Positions 1-62,242 of a stretch of 64,000 bases of DNA are shown here, one piece after another. Position 1 is the first letter of the stretch, and every line of letters starts with the position of its first letter. The DNA lies in contig JASLWR010000004.1 in assembly GCA_030740765.1 (NCBI GenBank), positions 24,873 through 88,872 of the forward strand. The letters are read 5' to 3'. A program made the translations under genes and the position numbers. Origin of the DNA: Thermoplasmatota archaeon (GTDB taxonomy: Archaea > Thermoplasmatota > Penumbrarchaeia > JASLWR01). The notes below the pieces were generated by a model that did not search any database, was not told the origin of the DNA, and saw only the letters and a program-made list of their open reading frames with translations.

Positions 1-3000
1 CTGCCATATCACCCAGTGTAGAAAGATAAGCATCCAGTTCTGAAAGGTCACTGGTCTGTGATGGATCAGGGGGAGGTCCATCTGGCAACTCTAACGGTGG
101 GGTGTCGGGTGATTTAGGAATCGGTTCGGGGGGAAATTGCGGTGTCGATTCCATTGGTATTAAGGGTTCTTCCGGTAGGGGAAAGGGAGTTTCCATAGCA
201 CCAACAATCGGGAATGCGAAGGGCTGGACTGCCAGATCCGGAGTAGTGATCTGGGTCGGGGGTGCTGGATTCATGATTGTTTGATCCGAGGGGGAAGGTC
301 CGGGCGGAAGAGCCATTCTTTCAAGGTATTGCGGCCCCTGCTCAGTTGAAAATGAAGGGAGCGAGTATGCGGTGCTGCCTACAGTACCCATGCCTTGTCC
401 CGCCTGATTATTGGGAGTTTGTTGTGAGGATTGCCCGTACTGAGGTAACTGGGGCTGCCCGAACTGATTGGGCGATCCCCCACCTGATTGTTGAACGTTT
501 AGCCCCGGTCCCGGCGGAAGCATTAGCTGTGAGAATTGCATTCCAGGCATCCCGCCATGTCTTTGTGGCTGTGGGGCTGCCCCGTATCCTTGCTTCCCCG
601 TATACATGTGCTGACCCTGGGGATAAGGATGGGAACTAGGGCCGTAAGGGGATTGTTGGAATGGAGGAGGTGACGATGGCGGAACATCCTTCTTCCCGTT
701 CTTCTTTTTTCTCACTATAATCAAGATGATCAGGACAACGATGATGAGGGCGAGTATCCCCCCCAGGATAATGAATAGCATGGAGGAACCTTCGCCCAGT
801 ATCCCGGCACTTTCCGTGTTGACAATATCGGGCTCGCCTTCCGGTGAATCCTCCCCGTTATTCGGGTCGGTACCGGATTCCCGTTCGAATCCGTCGGAGA
901 AACCGTCCCCGTCGCTGTCCATCTCGTAATCGGCACTGCTGCTCACCGCGATCTTTATCTTTTCACTCTCATTGTAGCCGTGACCGTCTGACACGAATAC
1001 CGTTATGGTATGTTTTCCCGGAGCCAATCGTGCATTCATTACTGCACCTGTCCCTAAAGATCGGTTGGCGCTGACATTGGATGTCCAGTAATAGCTAAGA
1101 TTATCCCCGTCCTCGTCGAAGGAAGCGGATGCGTCGAATAAAATCACGCTGTCGAACCTGAATAACGAACCTTCATCAGGAGCTGATATTACCACATCCG
1201 GCCTGGAATTCACCCATACCCTGTACGGGATCGAAATATTGTAACCGGTACCCATCAGATCGTCGGCACGCCAGCGGATGTAATTATCGGTCCCCCAATC
1301 AAACTCCAGCTCCAATAGTACCTGGGTGGGATTGCCATCCACGACGTTTATTACCTTCTTCCATGGACCGTAATTATTTTCGTCGTCACCCCCGCCATTT
1401 GAGATGGAATATTCAATCGTTACCGGATCGACCCCGGTTCCATCGTCGAATATCTGTATGAAACATTCAACATTGTTGCTGTCAGCATACTCATCCTCAA
1501 GCGGTGTAAAAGAGCCAAAATGTACGGGAGAACGGTCTATTTTCAGGTTGAATTTATCGGATAATGTAAAGGGGTTCCCAACCAGATCAGTCCCTCTGAA
1601 CATTAGAAAATTATCCTTCCCTTCAGCGTAGTCGAAGGTCACCGTTATCTTATAACTGTTTTCAGCATCTTCGATAATATTTTCAGCATCTATGGACATC
1701 CATCCACCGAAATCGCCCGGACCAGAGGTTGATATCCTGGCTTCCAGGCTGCCGGGATCCACCCCGCTTCCTGCATCCCTTACAATTATACTGGACGTTA
1801 TTGTGTTTGTTTTGTACCATTCCGTCTCAGGCGAGATTACGTTTGCGAAATTTACAGGTGTGACGTCCACTTTTATATTTATCGAAGGAGATTCTGTAAA
1901 CCCGTTTCCCGAAATGTCCTTGGCACGCCATTTTATGTAATTGTCCTCACCTTCATGAAATATGTATTTGATATCAGGCATCATTGGTTCGCTCACTTCA
2001 GGTATCCACGCGGGGATCCAGAAATCGAAGCCGTGCTCGCTGCCGCTGGAAATAGAGTATTCGATGCTGCTGCCGTCAACCCCGGATCCTTCTCCATCAT
2101 AGATCTCGATGGAGCATTCCACGTCCGTGTGATTGTGCCATGAGCCGTCTTGTGGGGAAAAGTTCGAAAAGACGGGGGGGGTCAAGTCCACCAGTATGCC
2201 CGAGGTTGCGGCATCGCCAATGTTCCCCACCATGTCGATGCACCATACATAAATTTCTGCAAATCCCTCGTCCAGTTTATCTATCTTGATCTCCGTGTCG
2301 TTGATGAACGATCCGTTGATGGTTCCCGACTTATCGGTTCCGGAAAAATAATATCCAAGTAGACCCGAGGCTGGGTCCTCCACCCTATCCCAGGTAACGT
2401 ACATCTCGGCTAGCTTCGTATTCTCCGTCTCCTTGTCCTTGAAACCACCGGCACGACACTGCAGGTTAACGGGAAACAGCGGAGGGTCCGCATCGATCTT
2501 CACCGCAAATGTCAGATTCGTCATGCATATGCCTGTTCCGGGTATATTCTCGATTGTGATGAGATATTCTTCCTCCTCGTCCGTTATGTTTCCGGAAGTG
2601 AATATTATTTCGACGTTTTCACCCCTGCTTTCGTTATCCCACCAAGTTCTTCCGGAGCTGTCCGAAAGCTTGACATCGTAATAATCGTCATGGGGAAAAA
2701 TGTCGATGCTACCGGCATATTGCACTGTTATATTGCTAAGGTTTATACTTTCTTCACCTTGTATCCAAGCTTCCTCCCTCAAGGCTCCTTGGTATTCACC
2801 TATATAATCAGCCGTACCGAAAAAGTCCAGGTCGTTCTCGATTCGAAAGAGCCATGGGAACCGATCAACGGAATATTCACCTGTTTTTGCCGTTGTAAAA
2901 ACCAGGCAATCGATCAACTCCTCGTGTGGAAAAGTGAAATTGAAGATAAGAATGAAATTCAGGTACCACCTGTCCACACCGTTATTCGTGATGAAACAGT

Positions 3001-4063
3001 CGTTTATCAGTAACTGAACTGTCCCAACCTCGTCCTGCAGTTTGAAGAATTTGCCCTGGGTCCAATTGTAGCACAATGTGGCGTTGGTGGTATTGTAATC
3101 CAGGTGGACCTTCACGTTTGATACCTCATCGAGAGAGTCCATGGTGCTGACATTCAGGGTGAGGTTGTACGGTTGGTACTGGGCGTAGCAAATTTTGTCG
3201 TCGCCGGTGGGATTGACCAATTCAACGTTCTCTGCACTGGGTATGGAAGTCATACCCTCCATGGCCTCCAGGATCTCCTGTTGGGAAAGATACCTGGAGA
3301 AGATGGCGGCATCGTCTATCAACACATCCGCACCGCTGTTAGCGGAGATTGGTTTTCCACCCACACAAGGGTCCGTGGGGCAGTGGGAGCCCTGTGCACG
3401 CCGCGGAGATGTAGGAACGTTCTTTGCACCTGTAACCTTCAGAACACCGTCAACATAAATCTGGAGATTGTTCATATTGCACCGAATGGCGACATGATGC
3501 CACTGGCTGTTAGCCAGGTTCAAACCGTTTGCATACGTATTATAATTCGAATTGTCATTATCACTCCCTCCCCAGAAACGTATCTGTGATGAACTGGCAA
3601 GGTTCATAGTGTAGCCGTTTCGGTTGGTACAACAATCCCCGAACATCATCAGCCCCTTCTGGCTTCCAGAATTGACCTTGAACCAGCACATGAAAGTATA
3701 GGCGTTAGGCATATCGAGGTTTGCAAGAGGCCCGCCAACCTGAACACGATTCTGATCGCCCCCGGGGACCCGTAATGACCACCTTCCGTGTTTAGCGTCG
3801 TTGGAAAACGAGACTCCATGAAGTGTCCCGTCGTTCCCACCAGAAATCGACAGGTCCCTTGCCAGGTTTCCCCTGCCTTCCTCAAAATCATAGTACAGTG
3901 CCTCCGGCTGCAATCCTCTCCGGCGTGCGAAAGCAGGTTGAGCGGCTTCCATCTTCCCGATTTTAACGTCTTTGGACCTGTTTTCCTCAAATGCATGAGA
4001 TGATAAGAATACTGCATATGAAGAGACTAAAAGTAATATGACGATGAGTGATATAAAAAACAT
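1..4063 (-). CDS. Giant single-pass surface protein, paralog A (3' partial, C-terminus beyond window start). Signal peptide MFFISLIVILLLVSS, LamG/ConA-like N-terminal head, conserved ectodomain, DSDGDGFSDGFERE motif, TM helix, P/Q/G-rich cytoplasmic tail.
   Basis: ATG is at 4063-4061 (revcomp translation MFFISLIVILLLVSSYAVFLSSHAFEE). Hand translation of the same frame (codon top position = 1 mod 3) reads NSGADVLIDDAAIFSRYLSQ at about 3281-3340, YEMDSDGDGFSDG at about 890-928 and QTSDLSELDAYLSTLGDMA at 2-58. These match paralogs B-D. The frame is identical at both ends, so the ORF is open-ended and not listed by the ORF track. Internal stops were not exhaustively checked. Confidence 0.7.
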   Translation of the reverse strand, partial: MFFISLIVILLLVSSYAVFLSSHAFEENRSKDVKIGKMEAAQPAFARRRGLQPEALYYDFEEGRGNLARDLSISGGNDGTLHGVSFSNDAKHGRWSLRVPGGDQNRVQVGGPLANLDMPNAYTFMCWFKVNSGSQKGLMMFGDCCTNRNGYTMNLASSSQIRFWGGSDNDNSNYNTYANGLNLANSQWHHVAIRCNMNNLQIYVDGVLKVTGAKNVPTSPRRAQGSHCPTDPCVGGKPISANSGADVLIDDAAIFSRYLSQQEILEAMEGMTSIPSAENVELVNPTGDDKICYAQYQPYNLTLNVSTMDSLDEVSNVKVHLDYNTTNATLCYNWTQGKFFKLQDEVGTVQLLINDCFITNNGVDRWYLNFILIFNFTFPHEELIDCLVFTTAKTGEYSVDRFPWLFRIENDLDFFGTADYIGEYQGALREEAWIQGEESINLSNITVQYAGSIDIFPHDDYYDVKLSDSSGRTWWDNESRGENVEIIFTSGNITDEEEEYLITIENIPGTGICMTNLTFAVKIDADPPLFPVNLQCRAGGFKDKETENTKLAEMYVTWDRVEDPASGLLGYYFSGTDKSGTINGSFINDTEIKIDKLDEGFAEIYVWCIDMVGNIGDAATSGILVDLTPPVFSNFSPQDGSWHNHTDVECSIEIYDGEGSGVDGSSIEYSISSGSEHGFDFWIPAWIPEVSEPMMPDIKYIFHEGEDNYIKWRAKDISGNGFTESPSINIKVDVTPVNFANVISPETEWYKTNTITSSIIVRDAGSGVDPGSLEARISTSGPGDFGGWMSIDAENIIEDAENSYKITVTFDYAEGKDNFLMFRGTDLVGNPFTLSDKFNLKIDRSPVHFGSFTPLEDEYADSNNVECFIQIFDDGTGVDPVTIEYSISNGGGDDENNYGPWKKVINVVDGNPTQVLLELEFDWGTDNYIRWRADDLMGTGYNISIPYRVWVNSRPDVVISAPDEGSLFRFDSVILFDASASFDEDGDNLSYYWTSNVSANRSLGTGAVMNARLAPGKHTITVFVSDGHGYNESEKIKIAVSSSADYEMDSDGDGFSDGFERESGTDPNNGEDSPEGEPDIVNTESAGILGEGSSMLFIILGGILALIIVVLIILIIVRKKKNGKKDVPPSSPPPFQQSPYGPSSHPYPQGQHMYTGKQGYGAAPQPQRHGGMPGMQFSQLMLPPGPGLNVQQSGGGSPNQFGQPQLPQYGQSSQQTPNNQAGQGMGTVGSTAYSLPSFSTEQGPQYLERMALPPGPSPSDQTIMNPAPPTQITTPDLAVQPFAFPIVGAMETPFPLPEEPLIPMESTPQFPPEPIPKSPDTPPLELPDGPPPDPSQTSDLSELDAYLSTLGDMA

Positions 4064-4263
4064 TTTACTACTGGTCACTTGGGCCATTCGATCATTCCAT
4101 AGCTTGTTTATAACGATAAAGAGAGTGAACCATAAGGGCGATAGCTATCCGATTGCTTATCTTAATCATAGTATTAATTCATTAATAACTATTTGGTAAA
4201 ATATCCGGATTTGTCCTTTTCCAGTATTTTTTTAACAATTACCCATCACTAGCGGAATTTTCT

Positions 4264-7200
4264 CTAAATTGAATTGATTACCCCTTGCGTCTGGCATACC
4301 GGGCAGGTGACCAATGCCGGGAACTCGGCGATCTCCGCCATGTAATTATTGCCGCATGAATGACACTGCATCTGCAGGAATCCCCTTCGGTTACCGCCAC
4401 CGTCTGGTGGCGTAGGCCCGTTTACACTGCGCAACACCTTCGGCGTTGCTCCCCCCTCGGGAGCAAGCTCCCTACGGGGGAGAGGGGAAGCAGATTCTGC
4501 TTTTTCCTGAAGGAAGCTAGCTTCCGAAGGATGTAGCGGAGCGGAACGGTCTGCGGTCACCGAAGATGAAACCAACAGACCTGTCTGTTGGTGATTCATA
4601 GTTATCTCATTCGTCAATTGTGATGATGAGCCCTCCGGAGCCGGGGGAGCCATGTTTCCTTCCGGAACTGGCGGTGCGGCAGGCACCGTGGGTTCTTTAT
4701 ACATATCATCCAATGAAGAAAGATATGCATCGAGCTCGGACAGATCACTGGTCGGCGAAATACCTGCCGTGGGTGGACTAAGCCCAGCTGGGGCTTGGCT
4801 GGCAGTAGGGATCGAAGCCCCCTCCGGGGGGAACTGCGAGATTTCTCCCGGGGGAGATGAAGGTGATGGCGGTCCCGAAAAAAGCGTTCCCATGGCACCA
4901 ATGTCCGGTGAAGTGGGAGGGAGGACTGACAGATCGGGGCTTGTCATCGGGCTTGGTACCGCCGTATTAATAGTTGTTTGCTCTTCCATGGAAGCGGGTG
5001 CTGGAGGAAGTGCCATTCGTTCAAGATTTTGTACTCCCTGTTCGGTAGTGAATGAAGGAAGGGCATATGCCTGACCTGCCGTAAGATCGGTTCCTGGCCC
5101 CGTTTGATTGTAGAGAGGCTGTTGTGGTGCTTGAGCTTGACCTAATTGCGAAGAACCATACACGTCGGGTCCATGCGGGAGCAACGGGAGGGAGCCCTGT
5201 CCACCCGCCATCCCAACATATGGTGCCTGGAATTGGGGTGAGCCCCCGTATCCTTGCTGCCCGGGTGACATATACTGGCCCCGGGGATGGGGCAGCATAG
5301 CCTGCCCTTGTACTGAGTGCTGGATGGGTGCTTGGACGGATGGAGAAACCTCTTTTTCTTCTTTTTTCATTCTTTTTCTTACGATAAAAAATATTACCCC
5401 AATAAGTATGATCAGCAATAGAATTCCTCCGAGAATGAATAATAACAGTGAAGAATCTTTACTGAGAATACCCGCGGTTTCGGTTTCCACGATGTCTGGT
5501 TTACCGGGGGGACTATGGGCCCCATTATGGGGGTCGGTGCCTTTTTCACGCTCCAGACCGTCAGAGAAACCGTCCCCGTCGCTGTCGCGTTCATAATCGG
5601 CTGTAGCGCCCACCTCGATTTTAACTTTCTCGCTTACATTGTAACCGTGCCCGTCTGACACGAACAAGGTGATAGTATGTTTTCCTGGGGTCAGGATACC
5701 TCTCATTAGAACCTTTGAGCCGATTGAACGGTTCGCACTGACATTGGAGGACCAGTAATAGCTGAGATTGTCGCCGTCCTCATCACGTGATCCCGAGGCA
5801 TCAAAAAATATTTGACTGTCAAACCTGAAGTACACTCCCTGTTCGGGATCCGTGATTATCGCTTCAGGGCGGGAATTCACCCATACGCGGTACTCCCTAG
5901 ACTCATTGTAACCGGTACCCATCAGGTCGTCGGCGCGCCAGCGGATGAAATTTTCTTTTCCCCACTTGAATTCCACCTCCACCAGAACCTGTGCAGGATT
6001 TCCCGAAACCACGTTTTCCGCCTTTTTCCAGGGCCCAAAACTTTTACGGTCGCCCCCCGCCCCGTTCGCAACTGAATATTCAACCGTTGCCGGATCGACC
6101 CCTGAACCATCGTCCAGTATCTGGATGAAACATTCAACCGTCTCGCTGTCCCCGTACTCATCCCCGCCAGGTGTGAACGTCCCGAAATATACCGGAAAGG
6201 TATCAATTTTCAGATTGAATTTATCGGATAGGGTGAAGGGGTTGCCAACCACGTCCGTCCCACGGAACATAATGTAGTTATCTTTCCCTTCGGCATAACT
6301 GAATGTCACAGTGATTTCGTGTGTGTCTTCTCCAGCTTCAGTAATATTTTCGGGGTCAATCGGCATCCATTGGCCATAACTATTTTGACCCTCGGTGGAT
6401 ATCCTAGCTCCAAGGGTTGTAAGGTCCACTCCGCTTCCTGCGTCACTTACAGTGATAGTTGTGCTTATTTTATTTAGGTCGTACCATTCCTTTTGGGATG
6501 ATATCTCCTTGGCGAAATTGACCGGTGTAACGTCCACCTTCAAATTTACCGGAGAAGATTCAGCAAATCCGTTTCCCGAAATGTCCTTGGCACGCCATTT
6601 TATGTAATTGTCCTCTCCCTCAGGGAAGATGTATTTTACACTCGGAATTATAAGGTTTCCTCCTTCCGCGACCCATGCAGGTATCCATAGATCGGAACCC
6701 AGCCCCAGGCCTACTGAAACCGAGTATTCGATGGTACTGCCGTCGACTCCCGCTCCATCTCCGTCGTAGACCTCCACCGAGCAATCGATATCCGTGTGAT
6801 TGTGCCAAGAACCGTCCATGGGAGTATGGTTTGAAAAGACCGGCGCCGTCAGATCAACCAGTATGCTCGATGTGGCGGCCTCCCCAATGTTTCCCACCTT
6901 GTCCACGCACCACACGTAAATCTCAGCTTCTCCCTCGGTCAGCTTATCGATCTTGACCTCCGTATCATTGGTTAATGTCCCGTTAGTGGTTCCTGAATCG
7001 TCCATCTGGGAATAATAATATCCAAGGAGACCAGAAGCAGGGTCCTCAACGGCATCCCAGGTAACGTACATCTCGGGCTGATCCGTATTCCCCGTCTCCT
7101 TGTCCTTGAAACCTCCGGCGTGGCATATAAGATTGACCGGATACAGGGGTGCCTCAGCATCGATCTTCACGGGGAAGGTCAGATTAGTCATGCATATACC

Positions 7201-8751
7201 AGAGCCGGGGATGTTCTCAATGGTGATGAGATATTCCTCGTCCGGGTCGGTTACGTTTATCGAGGTGAAACCTATGTCGATATTTTCTCCCTTGCTATCA
7301 TTGTCCCACCAGGAATTTCCAACGCTGTCCATTACACGCACGTCGAAATAACCGTCTTCAGGGTATATGTTCGCAGAACCCGCGTATCTCACTTTGAGAT
7401 CCGATAAAGCCAATTTCTCGCTTCCTCTTATCCAGTCCCCTTCATCCAGTTCTCCCTGGAATATGCCTGTTAAACCTGGCGAGCCAAGCAATTCCATATC
7501 ATTTTCGACCCTGAACAGGTATGGGAAACGGTCCCGGGAGTTCTCACCAGTATTTGCTGTGATGTCCACGAAACAGTCCACCTGCCTTTCGTGAGTGAAA
7601 GAGAAGTTTATAATGAAGGTAAAATTGACCCACCACCGGTCCACAGCGTCATTGCTAACGGAACATTGGTTCGGAAGAAATCTCACGTGGCCGTCCGGAT
7701 CCTGAACTTTAAAAAATTGGCCCCGGGTCCAGTTGTAGCCAAGAGTTGCGTTTGTCGTGTTGTAGTCGAGATATACAAGAAGTTCGGAAACCTCATAGAG
7801 ATCTCTCGTGGCCGTGATGTTTACGCTGAGATTGTATGCCCGGTACTCGGCATAACATACCTTTTCCACCCCTCCCTCGCCCCTGAGTGCTACCTCGTCA
7901 ACGTGGGCCGTGATCTCCACGGCAAGCCATTTTATTACATTCAGAAAATAACGCTGGCAGTTGCCATTGGAATCCCAGTTGCCGCCAACCCCCGAATACG
8001 TCCGGCCCCTGCCGTATATGAAGATCATTGGGCTCTGACGGTTGTTGGCGTCCCCGATCCGGGTTGCCTGGGGAGCGATGTTGTTATCCCGCAGCTCGGA
8101 ATCAAATAGACCGTTACTGCCGGTGACGGGAGAATTCACACCGTCCCATATCTCGTGGTTGCCCACCTTGTTAAAAGAGAAACCTCCAGCATTGTCGCCT
8201 CTACCGATCCTGTTGGTATAACCGAACATATCTTCGAGAGCGATGTATCCCCCTTGAATGGGATCCTGCTGGTCTACCATCCCGCAGCTTTCGCTCCATA
8301 TACCGCCTCCAGCCTGAACCCAGTTCCGCACGTCCGCAGCCACCACCCTGCCGCGCCCCCTAGAACGGCCCAGGTACACCACGTCGTAATTTGCCAGAAC
8401 CGCGGCATTGAGGGTACCGCTGCACATCTCGGTTATTTCTATACCATTGTTTGTGAGATAGGTTTTGGGAATCGTCACGTAGCTGTTGCGCCCGCAGGAA
8501 TTTGTCCCGTCCCCCTGGTAGATTAGAAATTTAACGTTACCTCCACCCCGGCTCATTGGTGAAAGTTCCTTATTGACCGTAATATGATTATCCCCATTGG
8601 CGTCATTTACCTCTCCCCGCCATCCATTGAGAGTTGGTCCAATATCAGCAAGCAGTATTATAAACAGTATCGAAAATATCAGGCCGGAGACCACTTTATC
8701 TCTCATTTGCTTCAATTCCTTCCATCTCCAAAAAGACCCTGAACAACCCAC
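4264..8751 (-). CDS. Giant single-pass surface protein, paralog B (1495 aa). ThuA/GATase1-like head, Ig-like/PKD ectodomain, Ca-binding-like DSDGDGFSDGLERE, TM, cytoplasmic tail with C-terminal C4 zinc ribbon. Carries an in-frame 75-aa insertion before the Zn ribbon.
   Basis: Long ORF in the track. PKD motif FDASGSRDEDGDNLSYYW. TM segment LLLFILGGILLLIILIGVIFFIV. C-terminus MQCHSCGNNYMAEIAEFPALVTCPVCQTQG. The true start may be the internal Met MRDKVVSGLIFSILFIILL at about 8706, which gives a signal peptide. Confidence 0.85.
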   Translation of the reverse strand: MGCSGSFWRWKELKQMRDKVVSGLIFSILFIILLADIGPTLNGWRGEVNDANGDNHITVNKELSPMSRGGGNVKFLIYQGDGTNSCGRNSYVTIPKTYLTNNGIEITEMCSGTLNAAVLANYDVVYLGRSRGRGRVVAADVRNWVQAGGGIWSESCGMVDQQDPIQGGYIALEDMFGYTNRIGRGDNAGGFSFNKVGNHEIWDGVNSPVTGSNGLFDSELRDNNIAPQATRIGDANNRQSPMIFIYGRGRTYSGVGGNWDSNGNCQRYFLNVIKWLAVEITAHVDEVALRGEGGVEKVCYAEYRAYNLSVNITATRDLYEVSELLVYLDYNTTNATLGYNWTRGQFFKVQDPDGHVRFLPNQCSVSNDAVDRWWVNFTFIINFSFTHERQVDCFVDITANTGENSRDRFPYLFRVENDMELLGSPGLTGIFQGELDEGDWIRGSEKLALSDLKVRYAGSANIYPEDGYFDVRVMDSVGNSWWDNDSKGENIDIGFTSINVTDPDEEYLITIENIPGSGICMTNLTFPVKIDAEAPLYPVNLICHAGGFKDKETGNTDQPEMYVTWDAVEDPASGLLGYYYSQMDDSGTTNGTLTNDTEVKIDKLTEGEAEIYVWCVDKVGNIGEAATSSILVDLTAPVFSNHTPMDGSWHNHTDIDCSVEVYDGDGAGVDGSTIEYSVSVGLGLGSDLWIPAWVAEGGNLIIPSVKYIFPEGEDNYIKWRAKDISGNGFAESSPVNLKVDVTPVNFAKEISSQKEWYDLNKISTTITVSDAGSGVDLTTLGARISTEGQNSYGQWMPIDPENITEAGEDTHEITVTFSYAEGKDNYIMFRGTDVVGNPFTLSDKFNLKIDTFPVYFGTFTPGGDEYGDSETVECFIQILDDGSGVDPATVEYSVANGAGGDRKSFGPWKKAENVVSGNPAQVLVEVEFKWGKENFIRWRADDLMGTGYNESREYRVWVNSRPEAIITDPEQGVYFRFDSQIFFDASGSRDEDGDNLSYYWSSNVSANRSIGSKVLMRGILTPGKHTITLFVSDGHGYNVSEKVKIEVGATADYERDSDGDGFSDGLEREKGTDPHNGAHSPPGKPDIVETETAGILSKDSSLLLFILGGILLLIILIGVIFFIVRKRMKKEEKEVSPSVQAPIQHSVQGQAMLPHPRGQYMSPGQQGYGGSPQFQAPYVGMAGGQGSLPLLPHGPDVYGSSQLGQAQAPQQPLYNQTGPGTDLTAGQAYALPSFTTEQGVQNLERMALPPAPASMEEQTTINTAVPSPMTSPDLSVLPPTSPDIGAMGTLFSGPPSPSSPPGEISQFPPEGASIPTASQAPAGLSPPTAGISPTSDLSELDAYLSSLDDMYKEPTVPAAPPVPEGNMAPPAPEGSSSQLTNEITMNHQQTGLLVSSSVTADRSAPLHPSEASFLQEKAESASPLPRRELAPEGGATPKVLRSVNGPTPPDGGGNRRGFLQMQCHSCGNNYMAEIAEFPALVTCPVCQTQGVINSI
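4372..4596 (+). repeat. 225-nt hairpin-rich repeat element (MITE-like), inserted in frame within the paralog B coding sequence; second copy at 60781-60895.
   Basis: The stretch 4372-4400 (ctgcaggaatccccttcggttaccgccaccgtctggtgg) aligns with 60781-60820 (cgcaggaatcctcttcggtaacccccaccgtttggtgggg). Both copies end in ...ggaagcagattc(c)tgc...gatgaaacc(a/c)acaga...tctgt(t/g)ggtgattcat. Paralogs C and D read TNEITM-QCHSCGNNY without these 75 codons. Confidence 0.6.
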
Positions 8752-36758: not shown

Positions 36759-37213
36759 TGGTAAATTTTGGGGAAGCAAGAAGCTTCACAATAAGTCCAG
36801 AAGGCCATTTAACCATGAAACGGATCACAGAATTAAGCAATTTTAACGACGGAAAGAAAGTTTTTCAGAGATTAGACATATACTTTGCTGCTGCTGCTTG
36901 GGGCATCGCGAATCGAAGTGATGGAAAAGTGACAAAAATACGGGGCAAAGGATACGACATAAGCCAAATAGACCCCAACGGCCTTTTCCAGCTCGTCCTT
37001 GAGAATTTACACCCAGAGATCCAGGACGACGTAGCGGAACTGAAGAAAGCATTTGAGGAATATGCCGAGGCCGGCCTCAAGCACTTTTCCGAAGTGGTCC
37101 ATAGTGAAGTGGATCTGCTCGACTTAATGATGCCTGAAACGTCGAAAAAAAGCCGGGAGGAACAACTCACGGCAAATCTCAGACGGTCCATTGACGAGCT
37201 TCTTGAGGAGTAA
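36758..37213 (+). CDS. Hypothetical 151-aa protein, second gene of the cassette
   Basis: Translationally coupled to the upstream gene; no recognisable domain. Confidence 0.55.
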   Translation: MVNFGEARSFTISPEGHLTMKRITELSNFNDGKKVFQRLDIYFAAAAWGIANRSDGKVTKIRGKGYDISQIDPNGLFQLVLENLHPEIQDDVAELKKAFEEYAEAGLKHFSEVVHSEVDLLDLMMPETSKKSREEQLTANLRRSIDELLEE

Positions 37214-37215
37214 CT

Positions 37216-47387: not shown

Positions 47388-47930
47388 ATGGACAGAATTT
47401 CATTTACTGAAGAAGAAATAAAGTACCTCACCGATTTTGTAAAAAGAGGTCGGAAAAGCGCAAGAGAATTGACCAGAGCCCGTATTTTGTTACTAATACA
47501 CGATGGCAAAACAGAGATGGAGATAAAAGAAATATTGCGTATCTGTAGGGCAACCGTTTCCAACACCAAGAAGAGATATCGTGAAGGAGGTCTTGAAATT
47601 GCTCTTTCGGAGAAGCCAAGATCTGGTCAGCCAAGAAAATACACCAATGTACATGAAGCCGAGATTATTGCGATGGCGTGTACAGACTCACCAAAAGGCC
47701 GTAAGAGATGGACCATTCGACTCTTGACTGAGCGAATGAAACGGCGGAAGTGCTTTAAGACACTCAACCGAGAAAGCGTTCGTCTAATTTTAAAAAAAGC
47801 AAAACTCGACCTTGGTCGAAAAGAATGTGGTGCATTTCAGAAATAAACCAGGAGTATCGAGAACGGATGTATGATATTCTTGAGTTGTATGAAAAAACTA
47901 GGTTTTTATGAGAATTCAAACACCCCACCA
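47388..47930 (+). mobile_element. IS630-family transposase remnant: N-terminal HTH region, frameshift, short continuation, then truncation (no DDE domain)
   Basis: Typical IS630 N-terminus ARILLLIHDGKTEMEIKEILRICRATVSNTKKRYREGGLEIALSEKPRSGQPRKYT...RKRWTIRLL. After the stop at 47846, another frame reads EYRERMYDILELYEKTRFL*, which matches the IS630 MEDVLxxYE region. Confidence 0.65.
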
Positions 47931-52446: not shown

Positions 52447-55400
52447 TCAATCGAGAATTATGTGCCCATCCCCTTGAGGTACCATCTCAGTTGCCCGGAA
52501 ACCTACCTCCTCTGCCAAACTCTCCAGTTCCAGGTCTCCCAGGATCACTGGTTCTACCTGATCCAGTGCTTCAGGGGTGCCGATGGATATTAGAGCCTTC
52601 AGCGCAGCCCTACGATCTTCCATCTCCACCGAACTTTTCAACATCTTAACAAGAGAGGGAACAACCCGTTCGTCTTTCATTTCTCCGAGTACTTTCAATA
52701 CTATCGGCCGCGTTCCCTTTGGTACCGTGAAAAGAACGTTCGCCAGGGCCGGAGCCGTGTAGCTGTTTGCGATATGCTTCAACCTGCTAAGCGTGACCTC
52801 TGCCTCCCCCCTAGACTGGTACATTAGATTGTCAAGGTTGGGTTTAGTAATGTGCTCGAACACACATTCCTTTAAGGGAGAGCGGGCAATACGCTGTAAC
52901 AGGAACCATTTTATGTCATGGTCGTAAAGATCGCTCAATAGCACTTTTGATCTCGTAGATATGCAGGCACTGGATATTACTTTCCCGGGAATAGTATTAT
53001 CAAAGAACGAATCCAAATCCGTATCCGATACAAATTTTTTAACATATTTCGGTTCCATCTCCACCAACATCATGACCAACCCCTTGAAGGTGTTGACAGA
53101 CCTTTTTCCAGGGAGGATGATCTCACTTTTTTTCTCTGCAAACTGCCTGAGAATTTCTTTAACTGAAATGGTGGAACTTACTGCCAGTCTCCATTGCTGC
53201 TCCATGTGATCAGTTCTATTGTCGTTTGAGCCGGTACTGGCTTTTCCCGCCGGCGATCTTTCAGGTATGACTACCCGTTTTTCAGAATTGGACTTTTTCA
53301 CTCCTGGCATTTCCAGAAGTAGCTTCATATAAACTGACAAGACCCTTGCAGCGGTGACAGGATGATTGCTCGCTTCGGCCAAAAGCCCCAGGGGTCGCTC
53401 CATCAATATCTCGTGTATTTCGCGAGATGTTGTGAAGCGTATGTTGTGGGAGACAACGTTTCTCATCTTTAGAAAACCACCCTTCACCGCCACCTCGGAC
53501 AGCCTATAAACGTCGGAATCCTTTAAAATGTCGTAGAGTTTCCTCTTATGCATGCCTAAGTCCTTGGCAATATCCTCAAGAAGCAGTTCCTTTTCCACCT
53601 TTTTTCCCATTGACTCCTTATAAAGGTCCGCATAACGTCCGGGCCTTATCATTGCGTCGGTGATATGTTTGATTATCGTCCTGTCAGGGAGATTCCTTCG
53701 AACATCCTTTGAGGGGTATTTTTTGATCTTGATATCTGAAATTATCTCGTCTTTCTCTCCTGGGCTCTTCATTGTCCCCTTCTTGACTTTCCCCCCCGGC
53801 GATCCGAAGGCTGCCGTATTCTCCCGGGTGATGAGGTTCCCACTTTTCGGATGTGCGAGAATGGTGATCTCAGGTAACTGCTCAGGTAAGGATGAAGGGA
53901 GCTCGATCCTTATGGGGATATCATTTTTGCCCGGCTCCAGCCGAAATCCCTCTATGATGTTAATTTCCCCATATGCCTTTGAAGAGGGCCAGTGAACCCT
54001 GTACTCTTTTCCGGGCAGAATTACGGTAAAATCCACTAATACGTCCTTTTTCGCATCACAGTTGGCCGTGACGGGTATCTCAAGGAGCGTCCCTTCTGCT
54101 CCCTCAGCTTGATCATAATCAAGATCTAACTGAATGTTTTTTCGAAATTCTGCAACTGTCTTCCGGACCTTCATATTCTTTTTGTAATCCCCCAGAAATC
54201 TCAGGGTCTCATTAAGTATCCTGGTGTGGTTATTGATGTTGTTACGAAACCCGTCTCGCAACCATTTGCATGCCTTTTCCAACCTGTTCTCTTGTGACCT
54301 CATCACACGACCAAGTGTGGAAAAGAACAGATATAGATGAAGATAAGCCATATTGAAATTGTATATGTGGGCCGCCAATCCCTCTGGCTTCATCTTGCCC
54401 GGCAAGGAAAAATCACGAATACCCCGTGATACCTTATTCATAAAATACACTGACATGAGACCGAATACCATTGGATAGATTTTCTTGTAATCAGGAACAT
54501 ACTCAGGGCCGCCTGATTCCATTTTTTCTAAAATTTTATCTTTCAATATCCCCGAATCTAGCTGCCTAATGAAAAAATCCATGTCTTTATTGAAGAATGA
54601 AGTGTAATCCAGGTCCAGTTGTTTGATCCTCTCTGTTGCCATCTCAGTATTTTTCACAGACCTGTTGCTTTTTTTTATTCTATCATCGTAAGGGGCAAAG
54701 TGTTCGATCAGGTTTGACGAATCACCATCGCCTATCTTACAGTTTTTCATTATTCTTTTCACAAGATTGTCCATTACAAAGGCATCGGACTTTGCCTTTT
54801 TCGCAAACACCAGCCTTTTCTTGCCCTTGGGCATGCTTTCGACCCTTTTCTTTAATGCTCTTGTGTAACCTTTAATTAAATTCGATGTATAACGGCCGGG
54901 TGTTTCCAATTCTGGTCCGTTTTTACCCAGAGCTTGCAAGGAAGAAGTGTCCTCCATATATGAGCTTATAATGCTTTCAACGAGGAACGTCACTCGGCTG
55001 ATATTCTTTGCATGCTCCTCAAGATAATTTCTGTCGAATCCCATGTTCGCCGCCGTTCTAGCGAGGACAGTAGAATTTAATTTATTCATTTCGTCCGGTT
55101 CAATCAGCACCTTTCCAAGGTGCAAGTTCAAATAAGTACCATTATTCAGCTTGAGAGTAGTAAAATCCTTCTCATTTACGGCTTCAGCCACCTTTTCTCC
55201 ATAGAACAGGTAATTTCCGATTTCCCTTTTAAGGTCCGCCGATAGTCCACTAGCAATCTTCTTGGGAATAATTTCCTTTTCAAGTTTTACCGAAAACTGC
55301 CGGGCCCCCTTTATCAAGAACATGTACGGAAGCCTGAAAACGCTTAGGGGAGTCTTTTCCAGATCGATGTATATTTCAAAGCTTACGTTGACATACCCCG

Positions 55401-56703
55401 AAGGCATTTTATCATCAAGGCGTATCACCCACTCCACTTCTCCCCTTTCTTGAGCTTCCTCCCGGTTTACGTCCAAAACTTCCACCGAAGTGCCCACCCC
55501 CTTTCCTTTTATCGTTTCTGCGGTGATTCTCGCAGTAAATTTCTCATCAATCAACCGGCCTCCGGTCTTGTAAAGGGCGATAAGGTGTACGGATTCTCCG
55601 GGACAATAAGAATATTTATCCGTTGTGGCACCGAAAAATTCGATATCCATGCCGCCTGTTACCTCGATAGCGCCTTTCTCCGTTGCCTCAACATCACCAG
55701 ATATCTCAAAAAATAGCTCATAACTACCTTGGAGTAATTCTTGTGTATCCTCAACGAGAAATTGGTATTCTTTCGGAACAATTTCTCTAGCAGAGTTTGG
55801 CTCCAATGTTATTTTACCCAATGGGATCGAACATATGTCGTTATCGTTTTTTCGAAAGTGAAGTCTTGTTGAAAGATCGAGTATTTCGATGCCTGTGTTA
55901 CTGATCCCCGCCGTGACCGTCAACATGCCACCCGGGAGAATCGAACGGGGACTGATATCAAGCATTGAGAGTGAAATATCATATTTACTCGCAATGAAAA
56001 AAACATTTTCAAAACATTTTGAAGTTTTAACGCTGTAATGACATAGAAATATCTCAACCCCCATTTCACCCTTTTCTTCGATATCTGAGATATTCGCCAG
56101 AAATGTTTCCGTATGCTCTCCCGAAAAAGTTACTCTTTTTTTATCGAAATGATGTAACTTCTTGCCGTTTACATCGAAAATATTACCCCAAATATCGACC
56201 GAACTCTCTTTTCCGGAAGCCTCGAGGATGATATTCATCTCTGCAGGCTTACCCGGTATTACTCTGTAATTGTTAGCCTCAACCCCTTTGATAGAGATAT
56301 CTGGCGGAGTGTATGAGAAAGTTTTTAACATTTCGGGAAGGATCGATGTGTAGTAAACGCCATGTTTCAGAATAACCTTCAACTCGTGCTCATCGGTATC
56401 GGAGAACGTTGGCTCCAGACTCATCCTATGTTTGAATTCCTTCGTTTCTGGTACTACGATATATTTTTCGATCGATTTTACCGGGCCAACACAACTGATC
56501 TCAATTTTTTGTGTAACTTCGTTTTCAGGAAGAGACAATAAAATATCGATGGTGATGGGTTCTCCCGGAGATCCCGTTGAAAGTTTCACATCCCCCGTAA
56601 TTTCAGGTTTTGCGCTCTTCGTGAAAATATCCAGGTTGATTACAATTTCTTCGGCCCCTTTTCCCTTTCGCATGACCTCATTCCCTTTTACCCTAAATAT
56701 CAC
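52447..56703 (-). CDS. Giant cytoplasmic protein (1418 aa) with C-terminal HEAT / PBS-lyase-like repeats and an internal HTH-like segment; function unknown
   Basis: HEAT-like repeats LGEMKDERVVPSLVKMLKSSVEMEDRRAALKALISIGTPEAL. No TM segment or signal peptide. Convergent with the upstream wHTH regulator gene. Confidence 0.7.
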   Translation of the reverse strand: MIFRVKGNEVMRKGKGAEEIVINLDIFTKSAKPEITGDVKLSTGSPGEPITIDILLSLPENEVTQKIEISCVGPVKSIEKYIVVPETKEFKHRMSLEPTFSDTDEHELKVILKHGVYYTSILPEMLKTFSYTPPDISIKGVEANNYRVIPGKPAEMNIILEASGKESSVDIWGNIFDVNGKKLHHFDKKRVTFSGEHTETFLANISDIEEKGEMGVEIFLCHYSVKTSKCFENVFFIASKYDISLSMLDISPRSILPGGMLTVTAGISNTGIEILDLSTRLHFRKNDNDICSIPLGKITLEPNSAREIVPKEYQFLVEDTQELLQGSYELFFEISGDVEATEKGAIEVTGGMDIEFFGATTDKYSYCPGESVHLIALYKTGGRLIDEKFTARITAETIKGKGVGTSVEVLDVNREEAQERGEVEWVIRLDDKMPSGYVNVSFEIYIDLEKTPLSVFRLPYMFLIKGARQFSVKLEKEIIPKKIASGLSADLKREIGNYLFYGEKVAEAVNEKDFTTLKLNNGTYLNLHLGKVLIEPDEMNKLNSTVLARTAANMGFDRNYLEEHAKNISRVTFLVESIISSYMEDTSSLQALGKNGPELETPGRYTSNLIKGYTRALKKRVESMPKGKKRLVFAKKAKSDAFVMDNLVKRIMKNCKIGDGDSSNLIEHFAPYDDRIKKSNRSVKNTEMATERIKQLDLDYTSFFNKDMDFFIRQLDSGILKDKILEKMESGGPEYVPDYKKIYPMVFGLMSVYFMNKVSRGIRDFSLPGKMKPEGLAAHIYNFNMAYLHLYLFFSTLGRVMRSQENRLEKACKWLRDGFRNNINNHTRILNETLRFLGDYKKNMKVRKTVAEFRKNIQLDLDYDQAEGAEGTLLEIPVTANCDAKKDVLVDFTVILPGKEYRVHWPSSKAYGEINIIEGFRLEPGKNDIPIRIELPSSLPEQLPEITILAHPKSGNLITRENTAAFGSPGGKVKKGTMKSPGEKDEIISDIKIKKYPSKDVRRNLPDRTIIKHITDAMIRPGRYADLYKESMGKKVEKELLLEDIAKDLGMHKRKLYDILKDSDVYRLSEVAVKGGFLKMRNVVSHNIRFTTSREIHEILMERPLGLLAEASNHPVTAARVLSVYMKLLLEMPGVKKSNSEKRVVIPERSPAGKASTGSNDNRTDHMEQQWRLAVSSTISVKEILRQFAEKKSEIILPGKRSVNTFKGLVMMLVEMEPKYVKKFVSDTDLDSFFDNTIPGKVISSACISTRSKVLLSDLYDHDIKWFLLQRIARSPLKECVFEHITKPNLDNLMYQSRGEAEVTLSRLKHIANSYTAPALANVLFTVPKGTRPIVLKVLGEMKDERVVPSLVKMLKSSVEMEDRRAALKALISIGTPEALDQVEPVILGDLELESLAEEVGFRATEMVPQGDGHIILD

Positions 56704-58737: not shown

Positions 58738-60774
58738 ATGGACGAAGCCCAAAACGATACTGAATCCGATGACGGGTATGAAGAAGACATCCCAGCACCG
58801 AGACGAAGAGATTATATTCCATCCATCGCGATGGCGCTGATATTCTGTGTTGCTATCATCCTGGGATTGGCTCTTTCTCCCATATATACCTCCCAGGGAA
58901 TGAAGGCTTTCAAAAACGAGGATGCGGTTGTCAATCCCCTGCTCTATATTATTTTTATCATTGTGTTTACTATAATAGTCCTCTTCGTGGTCAAGAAGGG
59001 TAAACGGAGCTGGATCAAGTATTTTTTTCTGGGAGCTATCTTTTTTACCATCATAAACGTCGTCTCTCCGGTACTGGACGGAGCGGTTTATGGTGTGGGC
59101 GAGGATTGGGAAAAGAAGACCTATGGGGATGAATTGGCTGCCTGGGATAAATCGGTTTTTGGCGGAAACGAATACGATTTCGCCATTCATGCGGACGGAC
59201 GTTTTGCAGTTTACGAGGATGAAAGTGAAATATTCTCGTATCAAGTGGGTAACCCGGTGGATGACCACGCCGATATCACTGTTTTTTCGTTATCATCCAA
59301 TAATCGTGATGATGCCGTCGCGGTAGCTGTCAAAGGGGCCGGTATCCACCTGTTCACCATTGAAAATTCGGATAAGATCCTACATCGTTTTTCGGCTCCC
59401 GGAAACGTTTCAACTTACCTTTTCGATACCTTGAATAACGATAATTTCGAGTTTACTTCTTGTGTAATTGATAATTCGGGGAACAATCCAACAATAAACT
59501 TGACGTCAATGAACCTGGGATACGATCCCAACGGTACCGTCGTAATTGGCCCGCATTATTATTACGAATATTCACTGGAGAACATAACGAACTCTGACGG
59601 AAAACAGATCCGGATCGGTGGAGAAAACCTCACCACGGCCGTATTGATCCCTGGGAAGAACCATGGGTTGAGGATCTGTCTCTCGGTTAATACCTTGAGT
59701 TACTTATTTAGCCTCCCGGGCCTTGACAATTGCTCCACCGTGAAATTTCCCTCACCCCTTGGATCAACGTACATTCTTGGCGATGGAGGACAAAATGAGC
59801 TGGTTCTATACAATCGTGATAAGTTCGAGGTCTTTTCATTAAGCGATAACGCCGTTGTTTCCATAGCAAAGAAGGTGATGGATGAAAAAATTGATGATCT
59901 GGTAGTTGCAAAAGGGATAAAGGGAGACGACACGGAAGCCGTTTACGTGCTGTCCAATGGTAGGATTCATCTGTTCGGTCCTGATGATTGGAAGGAGGGA
60001 TATGGTTATACCGAAGAAAAGCAGAAAGGGGCAAGCAGACTTTCGGTAAGCGACGCGGATGGTGACGGTCACATAGAGCTGAACCTGCTGTCTGGTAATG
60101 TTGTTCGACAATATGAGATATCCCCGGTGGAAAGGCACATCTGGGTTTGGGCCGTCGGTACTGTGGCAGCTTTGGCCCTGGTGGGAGCCATCCGCTTTCA
60201 CCCCGAGTGGTACGTGGTGGACGGGGTTGGAATCCTGGTGGCAGTTGGAGCCATAGCTCTGATCGGGATATCCCTGGCAATTCTCCCCTCTCTGGTTCTC
60301 CTGGTGATACTCGCCGTGTATGACGCCATATCCGTTTACAAAACAAAACACATGATCGATCTTGCTGACGGCGTTATGGAAATGAGGCTTCCCGTATTAC
60401 TTGTGATACCAAAGGACGGCAATTATTCATTCAGGAAACAAAAAAAATTGACCGAAGAGCTGGATAGCGGCGAGCCCCGGGGCGCCATGTTCATGGGACT
60501 TGGAGATATAATAATTCCCGGTATTCTTATTGTTTCTGCTTTCACCTATCTTCCCGAAGGCGTCCTTTTCGGGATCAGCAAGGCCTTGGTGGTTGCGTTG
60601 GGAGCTTTGATAGGTGGCTTGGTGGGTTTTGTTGCATTGATGAGATTCGTGTTGAAGGGAAATCCCCAGGCAGGACTGCCACTCTTGAACGGCGGAACGA
60701 TACTCGGTTATCTGATATCTTATATGATCCTTTACGGTGATTTTGGTTTTGGTCTAACTTTCAGCCTTTTCTGA
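58738..60774 (+). CDS. Presenilin / signal-peptide-peptidase family intramembrane aspartyl protease with ~450-aa N-terminal extracytoplasmic domain
   Basis: Catalytic motifs LAVYDAISVY (YD) and MGLGDIIIPGILIV (GxGD) lie in polytopic C-terminal half. N-terminal TM segments, then a large domain with Ca-binding-like DADGDGH. Confidence 0.7.
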   Translation: MDEAQNDTESDDGYEEDIPAPRRRDYIPSIAMALIFCVAIILGLALSPIYTSQGMKAFKNEDAVVNPLLYIIFIIVFTIIVLFVVKKGKRSWIKYFFLGAIFFTIINVVSPVLDGAVYGVGEDWEKKTYGDELAAWDKSVFGGNEYDFAIHADGRFAVYEDESEIFSYQVGNPVDDHADITVFSLSSNNRDDAVAVAVKGAGIHLFTIENSDKILHRFSAPGNVSTYLFDTLNNDNFEFTSCVIDNSGNNPTINLTSMNLGYDPNGTVVIGPHYYYEYSLENITNSDGKQIRIGGENLTTAVLIPGKNHGLRICLSVNTLSYLFSLPGLDNCSTVKFPSPLGSTYILGDGGQNELVLYNRDKFEVFSLSDNAVVSIAKKVMDEKIDDLVVAKGIKGDDTEAVYVLSNGRIHLFGPDDWKEGYGYTEEKQKGASRLSVSDADGDGHIELNLLSGNVVRQYEISPVERHIWVWAVGTVAALALVGAIRFHPEWYVVDGVGILVAVGAIALIGISLAILPSLVLLVILAVYDAISVYKTKHMIDLADGVMEMRLPVLLVIPKDGNYSFRKQKKLTEELDSGEPRGAMFMGLGDIIIPGILIVSAFTYLPEGVLFGISKALVVALGALIGGLVGFVALMRFVLKGNPQAGLPLLNGGTILGYLISYMILYGDFGFGLTFSLF

Positions 60775-60953: not shown

Positions 60954-61190
60954 TCACCCGCATTTCGGGCAAAAATATAATCCTTGGGAGGAGTCTACCA
61001 GGAGCGGGTCACCACATCTGGGACAGATGTTTTCCTGGGGAGTCGCTATTGGCGCCGGTGGGGCTCGGGGCGCAAATTGTGGTGAAACGGGCTCTGCCAT
61101 ACCTTGGAAAGTGTAGTCGTGAATGAAATAATTGTTATCGTCGATATATCCCTTTACATATTCTTTCTTGATGCATGTATTGATGAGCAT
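60954..61190 (-). CDS. Small zinc-ribbon protein (Pro-rich linker plus C-terminal CPRCG...CPKCG)
   Basis: C-terminus ICPRCGDPLLVDSSQGLYFCPKCG. The start may be the internal MAEPV, which would remove the overlap with the upstream gene. Confidence 0.45.
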   Translation of the reverse strand: MLINTCIKKEYVKGYIDDNNYFIHDYTFQGMAEPVSPQFAPRAPPAPIATPQENICPRCGDPLLVDSSQGLYFCPKCG

Positions 61191-61513
61191 TTCGGTCTTG
61201 GGTATAGGTTTGCCGATTTTTTTGCCACTTCCACTATCTTTATCTTTGGATAAGACCGCAGTATTGCGCTGATATCTTGAATCGGTTTGTCCTGCCGATA
61301 TTTATAATAACCGAATATGAAAAAACCAAGCCCGATCATAAAGAAAGGGAAGCCGCAAACAACGGTGAGCATTGTTCCATTAGACTTGTTTTTGGCCTCC
61401 GTATTGTCCTCCAGCCCATCGAAGTAATACGACATCCCCATTATGAGGAAACCTATACCAATAAGTAAGACTATGATTCCGATTGCTCTGTATACGAAGC
61501 CGGGTTTTGCCAT
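61154..61513 (-). CDS. Small membrane protein (two TM helices)
   Basis: Hydrophobic segments AIGIIVLLIGIGFLIMGM and VVCGFPFFMIGLGFFIFGYY. Confidence 0.45.
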   Translation of the reverse strand: MAKPGFVYRAIGIIVLLIGIGFLIMGMSYYFDGLEDNTEAKNKSNGTMLTVVCGFPFFMIGLGFFIFGYYKYRQDKPIQDISAILRSYPKIKIVEVAKKSANLYPRPKCSSIHASRKNM

Positions 61514-61606: not shown

Positions 61607-62242
61607 TTACAGTGGTTTCCCGCAGCCTTTGCAGAATTTATTCCCAGGTGGGGATTGTGAGCCGCAGGCCCCGCAAAATACACCGCCACCACCAGAAGCT
61701 CCTGCTCCCTGTCCCATGACTGAGCCCATCTGCTGGGCCATCATCTTGTATTCCTCCATTTTCTGGGATTTCTTTTGCTGTTCGATAAGCTCGCTCATGC
61801 GGGATTTCACCTGGACCGGATTAGCGACATTTAACCAGGCGACCTCGTATGCTAGAACTCCCATTCCCCTAACTCCTCCTCCACCTGCGGTGTTAAAGCC
61901 TATCATTCCAGCGCCAAATATCCTTGCAAGGAATGGCCGTAGAACCACCGTATCGGTGATCCTGTCATAGGGAGCTTCTTTGAAAGTTTTGCTTAGAATT
62001 CCTGTTTGTGAAATGACCCTTTTATTGGTTGCCGCATATGTCGTGTGTTTCAACATTGCCATTATGACAAAAACAAAAACACCAATGAAGATTGCGTAAC
62101 TTACCAAGCAAATCGCACCGACACCAATATCACCAGCCATAAGATAAATTGAGTATATCAATGCAAATATCGTTACCACAAATAGTGCCGCGAGTCTCGT
62201 CATAATGGATATAAATATGTGGGGCCCCGTTCCCAACCCCAC
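61607..62242 (-). CDS. Membrane protein with bacterial-type PH (bPH_2/YdbS-like) domain and C-terminal zinc ribbon
   Basis: Two N-terminal TM helices. YATNKRVISQTGILSKTFKEAPYDRITDTVV is typical of bPH_2. Gly-rich linker, then CGACGSQSPPGNKFCKGCGKPL. Confidence 0.6.
   Translation of the reverse strand: MGLGTGPHIFISIMTRLAALFVVTIFALIYSIYLMAGDIGVGAICLVSYAIFIGVFVFVIMAMLKHTTYAATNKRVISQTGILSKTFKEAPYDRITDTVVLRPFLARIFGAGMIGFNTAGGGGVRGMGVLAYEVAWLNVANPVQVKSRMSELIEQQKKSQKMEEYKMMAQQMGSVMGQGAGASGGGGVFCGACGSQSPPGNKFCKGCGKPL

Follow-up and report, generated by a model that had tools for sequence, protein, structure and literature searches.

A divergent MJ0042-type zinc ribbon at the C-terminus of tandem giant surface proteins in a marine Thermoplasmatota archaeon

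Uncultured marine Thermoplasmatota are abundant. Zinc ribbons of the Zn_Ribbon_1/DZR type fused to membrane proteins are widespread in bacteria and archaea and mostly uncharacterised, and membrane-bound one-component regulators are known in both groups (ToxR and CadC in bacteria, ArnR in archaea). The systems closest to the one described here come from two bacteria. In Caulobacter crescentus, the bitopic protein ZitP binds the PopZ scaffold through a cytoplasmic ribbon of family PF13719 (PMC5182065). In Myxococcus xanthus, the zinc ribbon (ZnR) of GltJ binds a short motif within the disordered linker of GltJ itself, where it competes with MglA-GTP, and it also recruits MglB (PMC11135422). We analysed a stretch of 64,000 nucleotides (hereafter the window; contig JASLWR010000004.1, positions 24,873 to 88,872) from a marine 'Candidatus Thermoplasmatota archaeon' metagenome-assembled genome (MAG; GCA_030740765.1). 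Our main finding is a variant of the membrane-anchored MJ0042-type ribbon that is archaeal, C-terminal and so far uncharacterised; this variant, here called ribbon A, is carried by tandem giant surface proteins.

An earlier interpretation, made without database searches (the sequence-only reading), had proposed that at least eight proteins of the window combine an ectodomain, a transmembrane (TM) segment and a cytoplasmic zinc ribbon, and that they couple the cell surface to an intracellular ribbon-binding partner. A literature search returned nothing relevant on archaeal TM proteins with zinc-ribbon tails.

The tandem surface proteins and ribbon A

The left third of the window consists of giant minus-strand genes arranged head to tail, followed by the divergent plus-strand gene of a 1959-amino-acid (aa) protein (18468-24347). 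The four paralogs are as follows.

1-4144 (open frame 2-4144), minus strand: paralog 1; C-terminus and ribbon beyond the window start; TM segment at aa 1125-1143
4264-8751, minus strand: paralog 2, 1495 aa, start possibly further in; ribbon A at 4267-4374
8879-13234, minus strand: paralog 3, 1451 aa; ribbon A at 8882-8989; tail motif at 9455-9526
13391-17620, minus strand: paralog 4, 1409 aa, P0004 (hypothetical protein); ribbon A at 13394-13501

The four cytoplasmic terminal ribbons that had been predicted for these paralogs were all found, three of them on the proteins that are complete in the window and the fourth on the ENA contig L001, which carries the same genes. There, paralog 1 is complete (1428 aa) and its C-terminal end, MQCHSCGNNYNAEISELPSLVTCTVCQTQGAIESL, contains ribbon A. 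A further paralog, the fifth, lies on L001 outside the window; its head is an olfactomedin domain.

The three complete paralogs share one layout, with a signal or TM segment, an ectodomain of ~1,070-1,090 aa, a TM segment, a stretch rich in arginine and lysine, a tail and the terminal ribbon. The stalks of the paralogs are of the Ig-like/PKD/TSP3 kind and are 55-64% identical, whereas the heads are only 13-16% identical; that of paralog 1 is a Laminin_G_3 domain (E 8e-20). The head of paralog 3 (12300-13100) shares 54% identity with part of a Planctomycetota MAG protein named 'exo-alpha-sialidase' (P0014), which suggests head-domain exchange across domains of life. The tails, of 290-370 aa, are P/Q-rich (P, Q, G, S, A), and a Pfam scan of them found no domain. 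Paralog 2 has a 76-aa insertion directly ahead of ribbon A. N-glycosylation sequons are concentrated in the ectodomain (1.9-2.1 per 100 aa, against 0-0.6 in the tail), in agreement with the proposed topology. Relatives were found in only 3 species-level genomes of 185,579. They lie there in arrays that range from 2 copies to at least 6; every array retains the terminal ribbon, and most copies end in it. A metagenome scan for additional family loci returned only three.

The C-termini of the paralogs follow the consensus MQCHSCGNNYxAEIxxxPALVxC(P/T)VCQTQGxI(E/N)S(L/I). The pattern CHxC-x16-C(P/T)xC is invariant in 13/13 family members, within a domain of ~36 residues, so that ribbon A has the two CxxC knuckles, ~16-19 residues apart in ~36 residues, by which MJ0042-type ribbons are recognised. 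We infer that these four cysteines bind zinc. Ribbon A members are 45-85% identical to the first sequence of their alignment, and the ribbon is kept at the extreme C-terminus among proteins with 40-55% overall identity, next to a tail with 14-25%. AlphaFold2 (AF2) modelled the ribbon of paralog 3 as a four-strand ribbon with a predicted local distance difference test (pLDDT) of 92-96. The 36 residues of ribbon A hold 0-1 lysines and arginines and 1-4 aspartates and glutamates. This near absence of basic residues makes binding of nucleic acid, one of the ligands that had been suggested, unlikely for ribbon A and favours a protein ligand.

The assignment of ribbon A to the MJ0042 type proceeds through an intermediate. 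The best scores obtained with curated models were 18 bits (Zn_ribbon_8) and 13.6 bits (Zn_ribbon_4); PF13719 was not listed in the Pfam scan, nor was TIGR02098 at E<=1. By hhalign, ribbon A matched a set of archaeal CPxC..F.V..P..I.CPxCG ribbons with a probability of 98.3% (E 2e-14). PF13717 is the best match of these ribbons in 7/7 cases, and one of them, P0064, scores above the gathering scores of both PF13717 and PF13719. This chain places ribbon A, as judged from sequence comparison, among the MJ0042-type (Zn_ribbon_4/5) ribbons, as a divergent member. The usual place of such ribbons is N-terminal, on the cytoplasmic side before the TM segment, as in ZitP and GltJ (AgmX), whereas ribbon A is found on the cytoplasmic side at the extreme C-terminus, 290-370 residues past it. 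A search of PDB sequences with the ribbon A profile gave nothing significant. The match to MDF1 (E 7.5e-4) covers half of the profile and was treated as chance.

We searched 1.84 billion protein representatives with a 40-position profile of ribbon A and obtained 64 matches, 30 of them at E<=1e-10. In nearly all 64, the match sits at the extreme C-terminus. E-values in this search were 8e-6 for P0064, 6e-6 for P0063 and 1e-4 for P0072. Besides members of the family, the matches include the following proteins.

P0053: ectodomain with Kelch and LamG
P0072: two ribbons; beta-helix and BNR; Thermoplasmatales MAG
P0063: Big_7 and TSP3; SAP-like tail motif (21.1 bits, below cutoff)
P0064: four ribbons; Euryarchaeota MAG
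P0044: among the proteins with other ectodomains
P0069: helical-repeat giant without TM segment, 7,686 aa
P0082: helical-repeat giant without TM segment, with an open frame of at least 5,342 aa

A helical-repeat protein of 1,074 aa, with no Pfam match and no ribbon, is encoded 1.6 kb to the right of the window (L012 11479-14703). It shows weak homology (E 4e-10) to P0069 and P0082, giants of the same repeat which end in ribbon A.

The last residues of the paralogs in the window (4267-4275, 8882-8890 and 13394-13402) read -(E/N)-S-(L/I). This end resembles the pattern of class-I PDZ ligands, and the vicinity showed no PDZ protein.

Two islands of the tails are conserved besides the ribbon, namely the motif YxLPxF(S/T)TxxGxQxLxR(M/L)ALPP and, between close paralogs, an acidic helix, ELDxYL. 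The copy of the motif in paralog 3 is YLLPTFSTDQGMQELGRLALPPAP (9455-9526). Mean pairwise identity is 68% for the motif and 57% for ribbon A, against 14-25% for the background tail. In the AF2 model of paralog 3, the motif forms a beta-hairpin with a pLDDT of 77-79.

Zinc modules on other membrane proteins, and further genes

Four more TM proteins with a zinc module are encoded in the window.

18468-24347, plus strand: 1959-aa type-I surface protein; Zn_Ribbon_1-like CTNTNC-x10-CTHC at 23694-23753
48034-49062, plus strand: 342-aa membrane protein, start perhaps at 48052 or later; C2HC finger at 48982-49041
60954-61513, minus strand: frameshifted 186-aa gene, with open reading frames (ORFs) of 119 aa and 78 aa (60954-61190); A7 run at 61217-61223
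61607-62242, minus strand: 211-aa protein, TM segments at 17-35 and 43-61, bPH_2; terminal CGACG-x10-CKGCG ribbon at 61622-61675

The 1959-aa protein is distantly related to the paralogs, with which it shares an ectodomain repeat core (BLASTP 7e-17 to paralog 3, 23-26% identity). Its ribbon had been taken as C-terminal; it lies at aa 1743-1762, 52 aa past the TM segment, and is followed by 197 residues, an acidic and proline-rich tail ending in PPPPPPPE. The motif is canonical, and PF13240 matched the ribbon fragment with an E-value of 3.5e-5 and 23.9 bits, below the cutoff of 25. NCBI names a fragment of this protein cluster 'zinc ribbon domain-containing protein'.

The 342-aa protein has a choice-of-anchor-V-like ectodomain, a TM segment and a C-terminal CPxCxC-x9-H-x3/4-(C/H). 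A zinc module is therefore present at its end, as had been proposed, but it is not a ribbon. Its orthologues P0019, P0020 and P0021 retain the CPxC and the histidine (CPxCxCxLKxKNxxxH-x3/4-(C/H)) and exchange Cys and His at the fourth ligand position, which identifies the module as a zinc finger. No Pfam family matched it, and its C2H(C/H) assignment stands at the level of the pattern. A UBZ4-like reading, based on spacing, had no Pfam support and was replaced by that of a generic C2H(C/H) finger. The N-terminal CQWC was considered as one half of a split site and discarded, since it lacks conservation and since the gene as called by JGI (298 aa, L023) is short enough to start downstream of it.

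The product of 60954-61190 had been listed as a membrane protein. This 78-aa ORF has no TM segment of its own; it is the 3' part of the frameshifted gene and overlaps, in a different frame, the 119-aa ORF with two TM segments. With one more A in the A7 run, the two ORFs join into a 186-aa protein that is 99% identical over 100% of its length to the metagenomic protein P0016. The intact form has two TM segments, a PCI-like winged helix, a proline linker and a CPRCG-x14-CPKCG ribbon (60960-61025), and no ectodomain. Its 70% identical relative P0017 gave a PCI/winged-helix match. The ribbon scored 25.0 bits with PF08792 (A2L_zn_ribbon), above the cutoff of 22.9, and 25.5 bits with PF08271, below the cutoff of 29. 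The A7 allele, a 1-nucleotide deletion from A8, occurs in three other independent assemblies, and the intact allele is found elsewhere (P0016, P0144). It is thus likely a real population variant, a pseudogene or a slippage site, rather than an assembly error.

The 211-aa protein had been described as a PH-domain membrane protein with a terminal ribbon, which agrees with its bPH_2 domain (PF03703, E 2e-12, 47.4 bits against a gathering score of 22), its two TM segments and its ribbon; it has no ectodomain. The ribbon resembles Zn_Ribbon_1/DZR at scores below the cutoffs (PF13240, 16.6 against 25; DZR, PF12773, 18.1 against 27.3).

The recurrence noted by the sequence-only reading is thus real, with eight TM proteins that carry a zinc module. 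Its version with an ectodomain comprises only six proteins, five of them in one superfamily, and half of the original count comes from the tandem duplication of one gene. Paired CxxC..CxxC motifs occur in 7/41 proteins of the window, compared with 0.13 expected from 2,000 shuffles, and in the last 60 aa of 4 proteins, compared with 0.012. These counts exclude chance, which had been named as a possible source of the CxxC pairs. Ferredoxin-type Cys clusters (45453-46877 and 40331-42111) and an EndoIII cluster were left out of the ribbon count. The paralogs share ribbon A; the other modules are unrelated to it. At least four kinds are present in all: ribbon A, Zn_Ribbon_1/DZR-like (the 1959-aa and bPH_2 proteins), A2L/TFIIB-like and the C2HC finger. 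As these unrelated kinds also occupy different positions, a single zinc-ribbon-binding partner is unsupported.

To place this density in context, we compared it with a small sample, the regions that flank related loci and loci from other archaea. Among TM proteins outside the family, 4/13 carry a zinc module in the window and 3/45 in the flanks (~4/54 with the last loci). Fisher's p is 0.04, or 0.10 once 10 kb to the right of the window are included, and the enrichment is suggestive only. On the related contig L020, a ribbon-A protein lies beside a type-I protein with a different ribbon just after the TM segment. Two adjacent multi-ribbon membrane proteins of the MJ0042 type occur in a distant euryarchaeal MAG (L018), indicating that the architecture is not confined to this lineage.

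Three further genes concern surface proteins, membrane-bound regulation or proteolysis.

29007-29648, minus strand: 213-aa surface-protein fragment with PKD, a TM segment and a proline tail ending in PPLPPPPE; no zinc module
50578-52434, plus strand: 618-aa protein with choice-of-anchor-T-like ectodomain, TM segments and cytoplasmic ArsR-type helix-turn-helix (HTH; 52003-52185)
58738-60774, plus strand: 678-aa presenilin-family intramembrane aspartyl protease (PSH; NF041679, E 5e-86)

The 213-aa fragment abuts a 435-aa transposase-like ORF with an N-terminal CPRC...CTKC ribbon and weak IS1249/IS66 matches, and the region 29007-31034 is probably a surface-protein gene cut by a mobile element. 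Short proline ends (...PPPPPPPE, ...PPLPPPPE, ...ALPPPES) stand in place of a terminal ribbon at 24321-24347, at 29007-29033, in P0007 and in L005 1511-5617. The proline C-terminus of ribbon-free surface proteins may be an alternative C-terminal ligand motif.

The 618-aa protein joins a surface domain to a cytoplasmic binding module, in a zinc-free version of the theme, and its domain composition makes it a candidate membrane-tethered transcription regulator. Its homologues adjoin members of the paralog family in L007 and L008. PSH has an N-terminal extension of ~460 aa that holds additional TM helices.

Elsewhere, the middle of the window encodes metabolic enzymes (propionyl/acetyl-CoA carboxylase, malic enzyme, succinyl-CoA synthetase, fumarase and succinate dehydrogenase), and scans of the window for tRNA genes and Rfam families gave no match. 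A 1418-aa ORF (52447-56703) was ruled out as a fifth paralog; it carries HEAT repeats and has no TM segment. A G8 run (~45425-45432) parts ORF 43892-45433 (...NILVVGGG*) from ORF 45453-46877 (...DNAIETA) in a different frame; the two are apparently one split membrane oxidoreductase with Pyr_redox and Fer4_5 domains, and NCBI GCA_030751375.1 and two JGI assemblies call the split in the same way. Two small ORFs without annotation precede a BrxL-like Lon protease (36222-38628, E 2e-93) that stands alone, no other BREX genes being in view. An IS630-like HTH_32 fragment lies at 47388-47846.

Possible roles of ribbon A

We infer that ribbon A has a docking function and that a partner exists for it. 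It could be a portable protein-docking tag or switch at the end of a long disordered cytoplasmic tail, a reading that we hold with about even confidence and that is favoured because of the precedents of ZitP and GltJ, the shared ingredients of the tails and the low lysine and arginine content of the ribbon. Ribbon A would tie the tail of a paralog to a cytoplasmic partner, or would fold back on the conserved motif of the tail itself, and binding at the variable heads would thereby be linked to something inside the cell. In other archaea, ribbon A also closes unrelated ectodomain proteins and helical-repeat giants without TM segments, as a portable C-terminal tag. The four further zinc-module membrane proteins of the window are neighbours by circumstance, not one system. 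That surface proteins are coupled to a partner inside the cell, as the sequence-only reading proposed, is plausible for the paralog family, given its MJ0042-type homology, but is not supported in the form of one partner common to at least four unrelated kinds of module. An extended version, in which the tag joins surface receptors to a cytoplasmic scaffold of giant helical-repeat proteins in marine Thermoplasmatota, as a membrane-skeleton or focal-adhesion-like link, is a long shot.

Several observations weigh against docking. Ribbon A lies below every curated threshold (PF13717, E 0.068, 13.6 bits against 30.3). No partner for it was found in the neighbourhoods of the loci L004-L010, where a search for a conserved cytoplasmic interactor had been suggested; an all-against-all BLAST of the ORFs of these loci and of the window returned only synteny between L007 and L008 and no conserved neighbour of the arrays. 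Ribbon-less members of the family exist (P0007 and L005 1511-5617), and more distant ectodomain relatives (L021, L022) have short ribbon-free tails, indicating that the ribbon is dispensable for the function of the ectodomain. When the ribbon was removed in AF2 to probe the fold-back, the hairpin of the tail motif was kept and its pLDDT went only from 77-79 to 63-68, a comparison of pLDDT only, with no contact information. The differences from ZitP and GltJ given in the last section count on the same side.

It may also be that there is no functional theme and that the ribbons are generic, cheap folded caps, of a sort frequently seen on membrane proteins of prokaryotes, that merely stabilise or end disordered tails and have no dedicated partner, brought together by tandem duplication plus coincidence. 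The four or more unrelated kinds of module at different positions, the membership of 4-5 of the 8 proteins in one duplicated family, the weak enrichment (4/13 against 3/45, p 0.04 or 0.10) and the ribbon-less family members all speak for this account, which we nevertheless find rather unlikely: ribbon A is strongly conserved at the very end of proteins whose neighbouring tail sequence diverges, unrelated proteins bear it as a terminal tag as well, and partners have been demonstrated for its bacterial relatives. Ribbon A as a C-terminal sorting or localisation signal, read by targeting, insertion or quality-control machinery or directing the proteins to a membrane region, would be consistent with its terminal place in nearly all 64 matches, its presence on membrane and non-membrane giants alike, the conserved -E-S-L/I end and the polar localisation that the ZitP ribbon itself determines. 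This proposal overlaps largely with docking. We consider it improbable, as signal peptides and TM helices already explain membrane insertion, some paralogues lack the ribbon, and the neighbours surveyed include no candidate receptor.

Tails that bind DNA or RNA, either in place or once freed by intramembrane proteolysis, for instance by PSH (58738-60774), would account for the winged helix joined to an A2L/TFIIB-like ribbon in the 186-aa protein, for the cytoplasmic ArsR-type HTH of the 618-aa protein and for the sub-cutoff SAP-like tail motif of P0063. PSH is encoded within the window, and the paralogs are single-pass type-I proteins, a topology that fits PSH substrates; its relevance is confined to the version in which proteolysis frees the tails, and is speculative. 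However, ribbon A is essentially devoid of basic residues and the tail is acidic and proline-rich, co-location with PSH has been seen once, neither a shedding protease nor evidence of cleavage is on record, and a frameshift interrupts the winged-helix gene in this population, so that we judge nucleic-acid-binding tails to have a small chance of being right. Least probable, and by our estimate very unlikely, are paired CxxC motifs that act as thiol/redox or metal sensors in place of structural zinc sites. Sequence matches to HypA, to a dual-CXXC selenoprotein family and to rubredoxin-like proteins point that way but are all far under the cutoffs, whereas the AF2 fold and the spacing of the cysteines are those of a structural zinc ribbon, and no redox partner genes are adjacent.

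Comparison with described systems

Three of the additional zinc-module proteins and the 618-aa protein have their own parallels. The 1959-aa and 211-aa proteins carry a ribbon of the CxxCG-x(10)-FCxxCG type beside a TM segment, in the manner of Zn_Ribbon_1 (PF13240)/DZR proteins; ribbons of this type have no sequence relationship to ribbon A. Like the one-component regulators, two proteins have a membrane-tethered domain of DNA-binding type: the 186-aa protein, with a winged helix and a ribbon after its two TM segments, and the 618-aa protein, which combines an ectodomain, TM segments and an ArsR-type HTH. In this population, however, a frameshift splits the gene of the 186-aa protein, and both proteins are unrelated to the paralog family.

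If the tag is truly common to the helical-repeat giants, they may form an unrecognised cortical scaffold. More directly, the 36-residue domain and the 24-residue peptide of the tail offer a handle for the cytoplasmic partners of archaeal surface receptors.

GltJ (AgmX) sits in the membrane as part of the gliding focal-adhesion machinery of M. xanthus, with a cytoplasmic ZnR attached to a long disordered linker in which the short binding motif lies; the tails of the paralogs likewise pair a ribbon, a disordered region and a short conserved motif. The paralogs differ from it in that they have no GYF domain, the order of the parts is reversed, and they are archaeal rather than bacterial. No counterparts of MglA, MglB or AglZ were identified among the neighbours across L004-L010. 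ZitP resembles the paralogs in its small cytoplasmic four-Cys ribbon on a membrane protein, to which ribbon A is linked by profile comparison. ZitP (PF13719, TM segment, DUF3426) is bacterial, with an N-terminal ribbon and a small periplasmic domain, whereas the paralogs are archaeal and bear the ribbon C-terminally, after a disordered tail of ~300 aa, on a type-I protein of 1,400 aa for which no PopZ-like partner is known. Ribbon A would thus carry this bacterial kind of membrane-anchored zinc ribbon, known from ZitP and GltJ, over to the archaea, with its orientation reversed.

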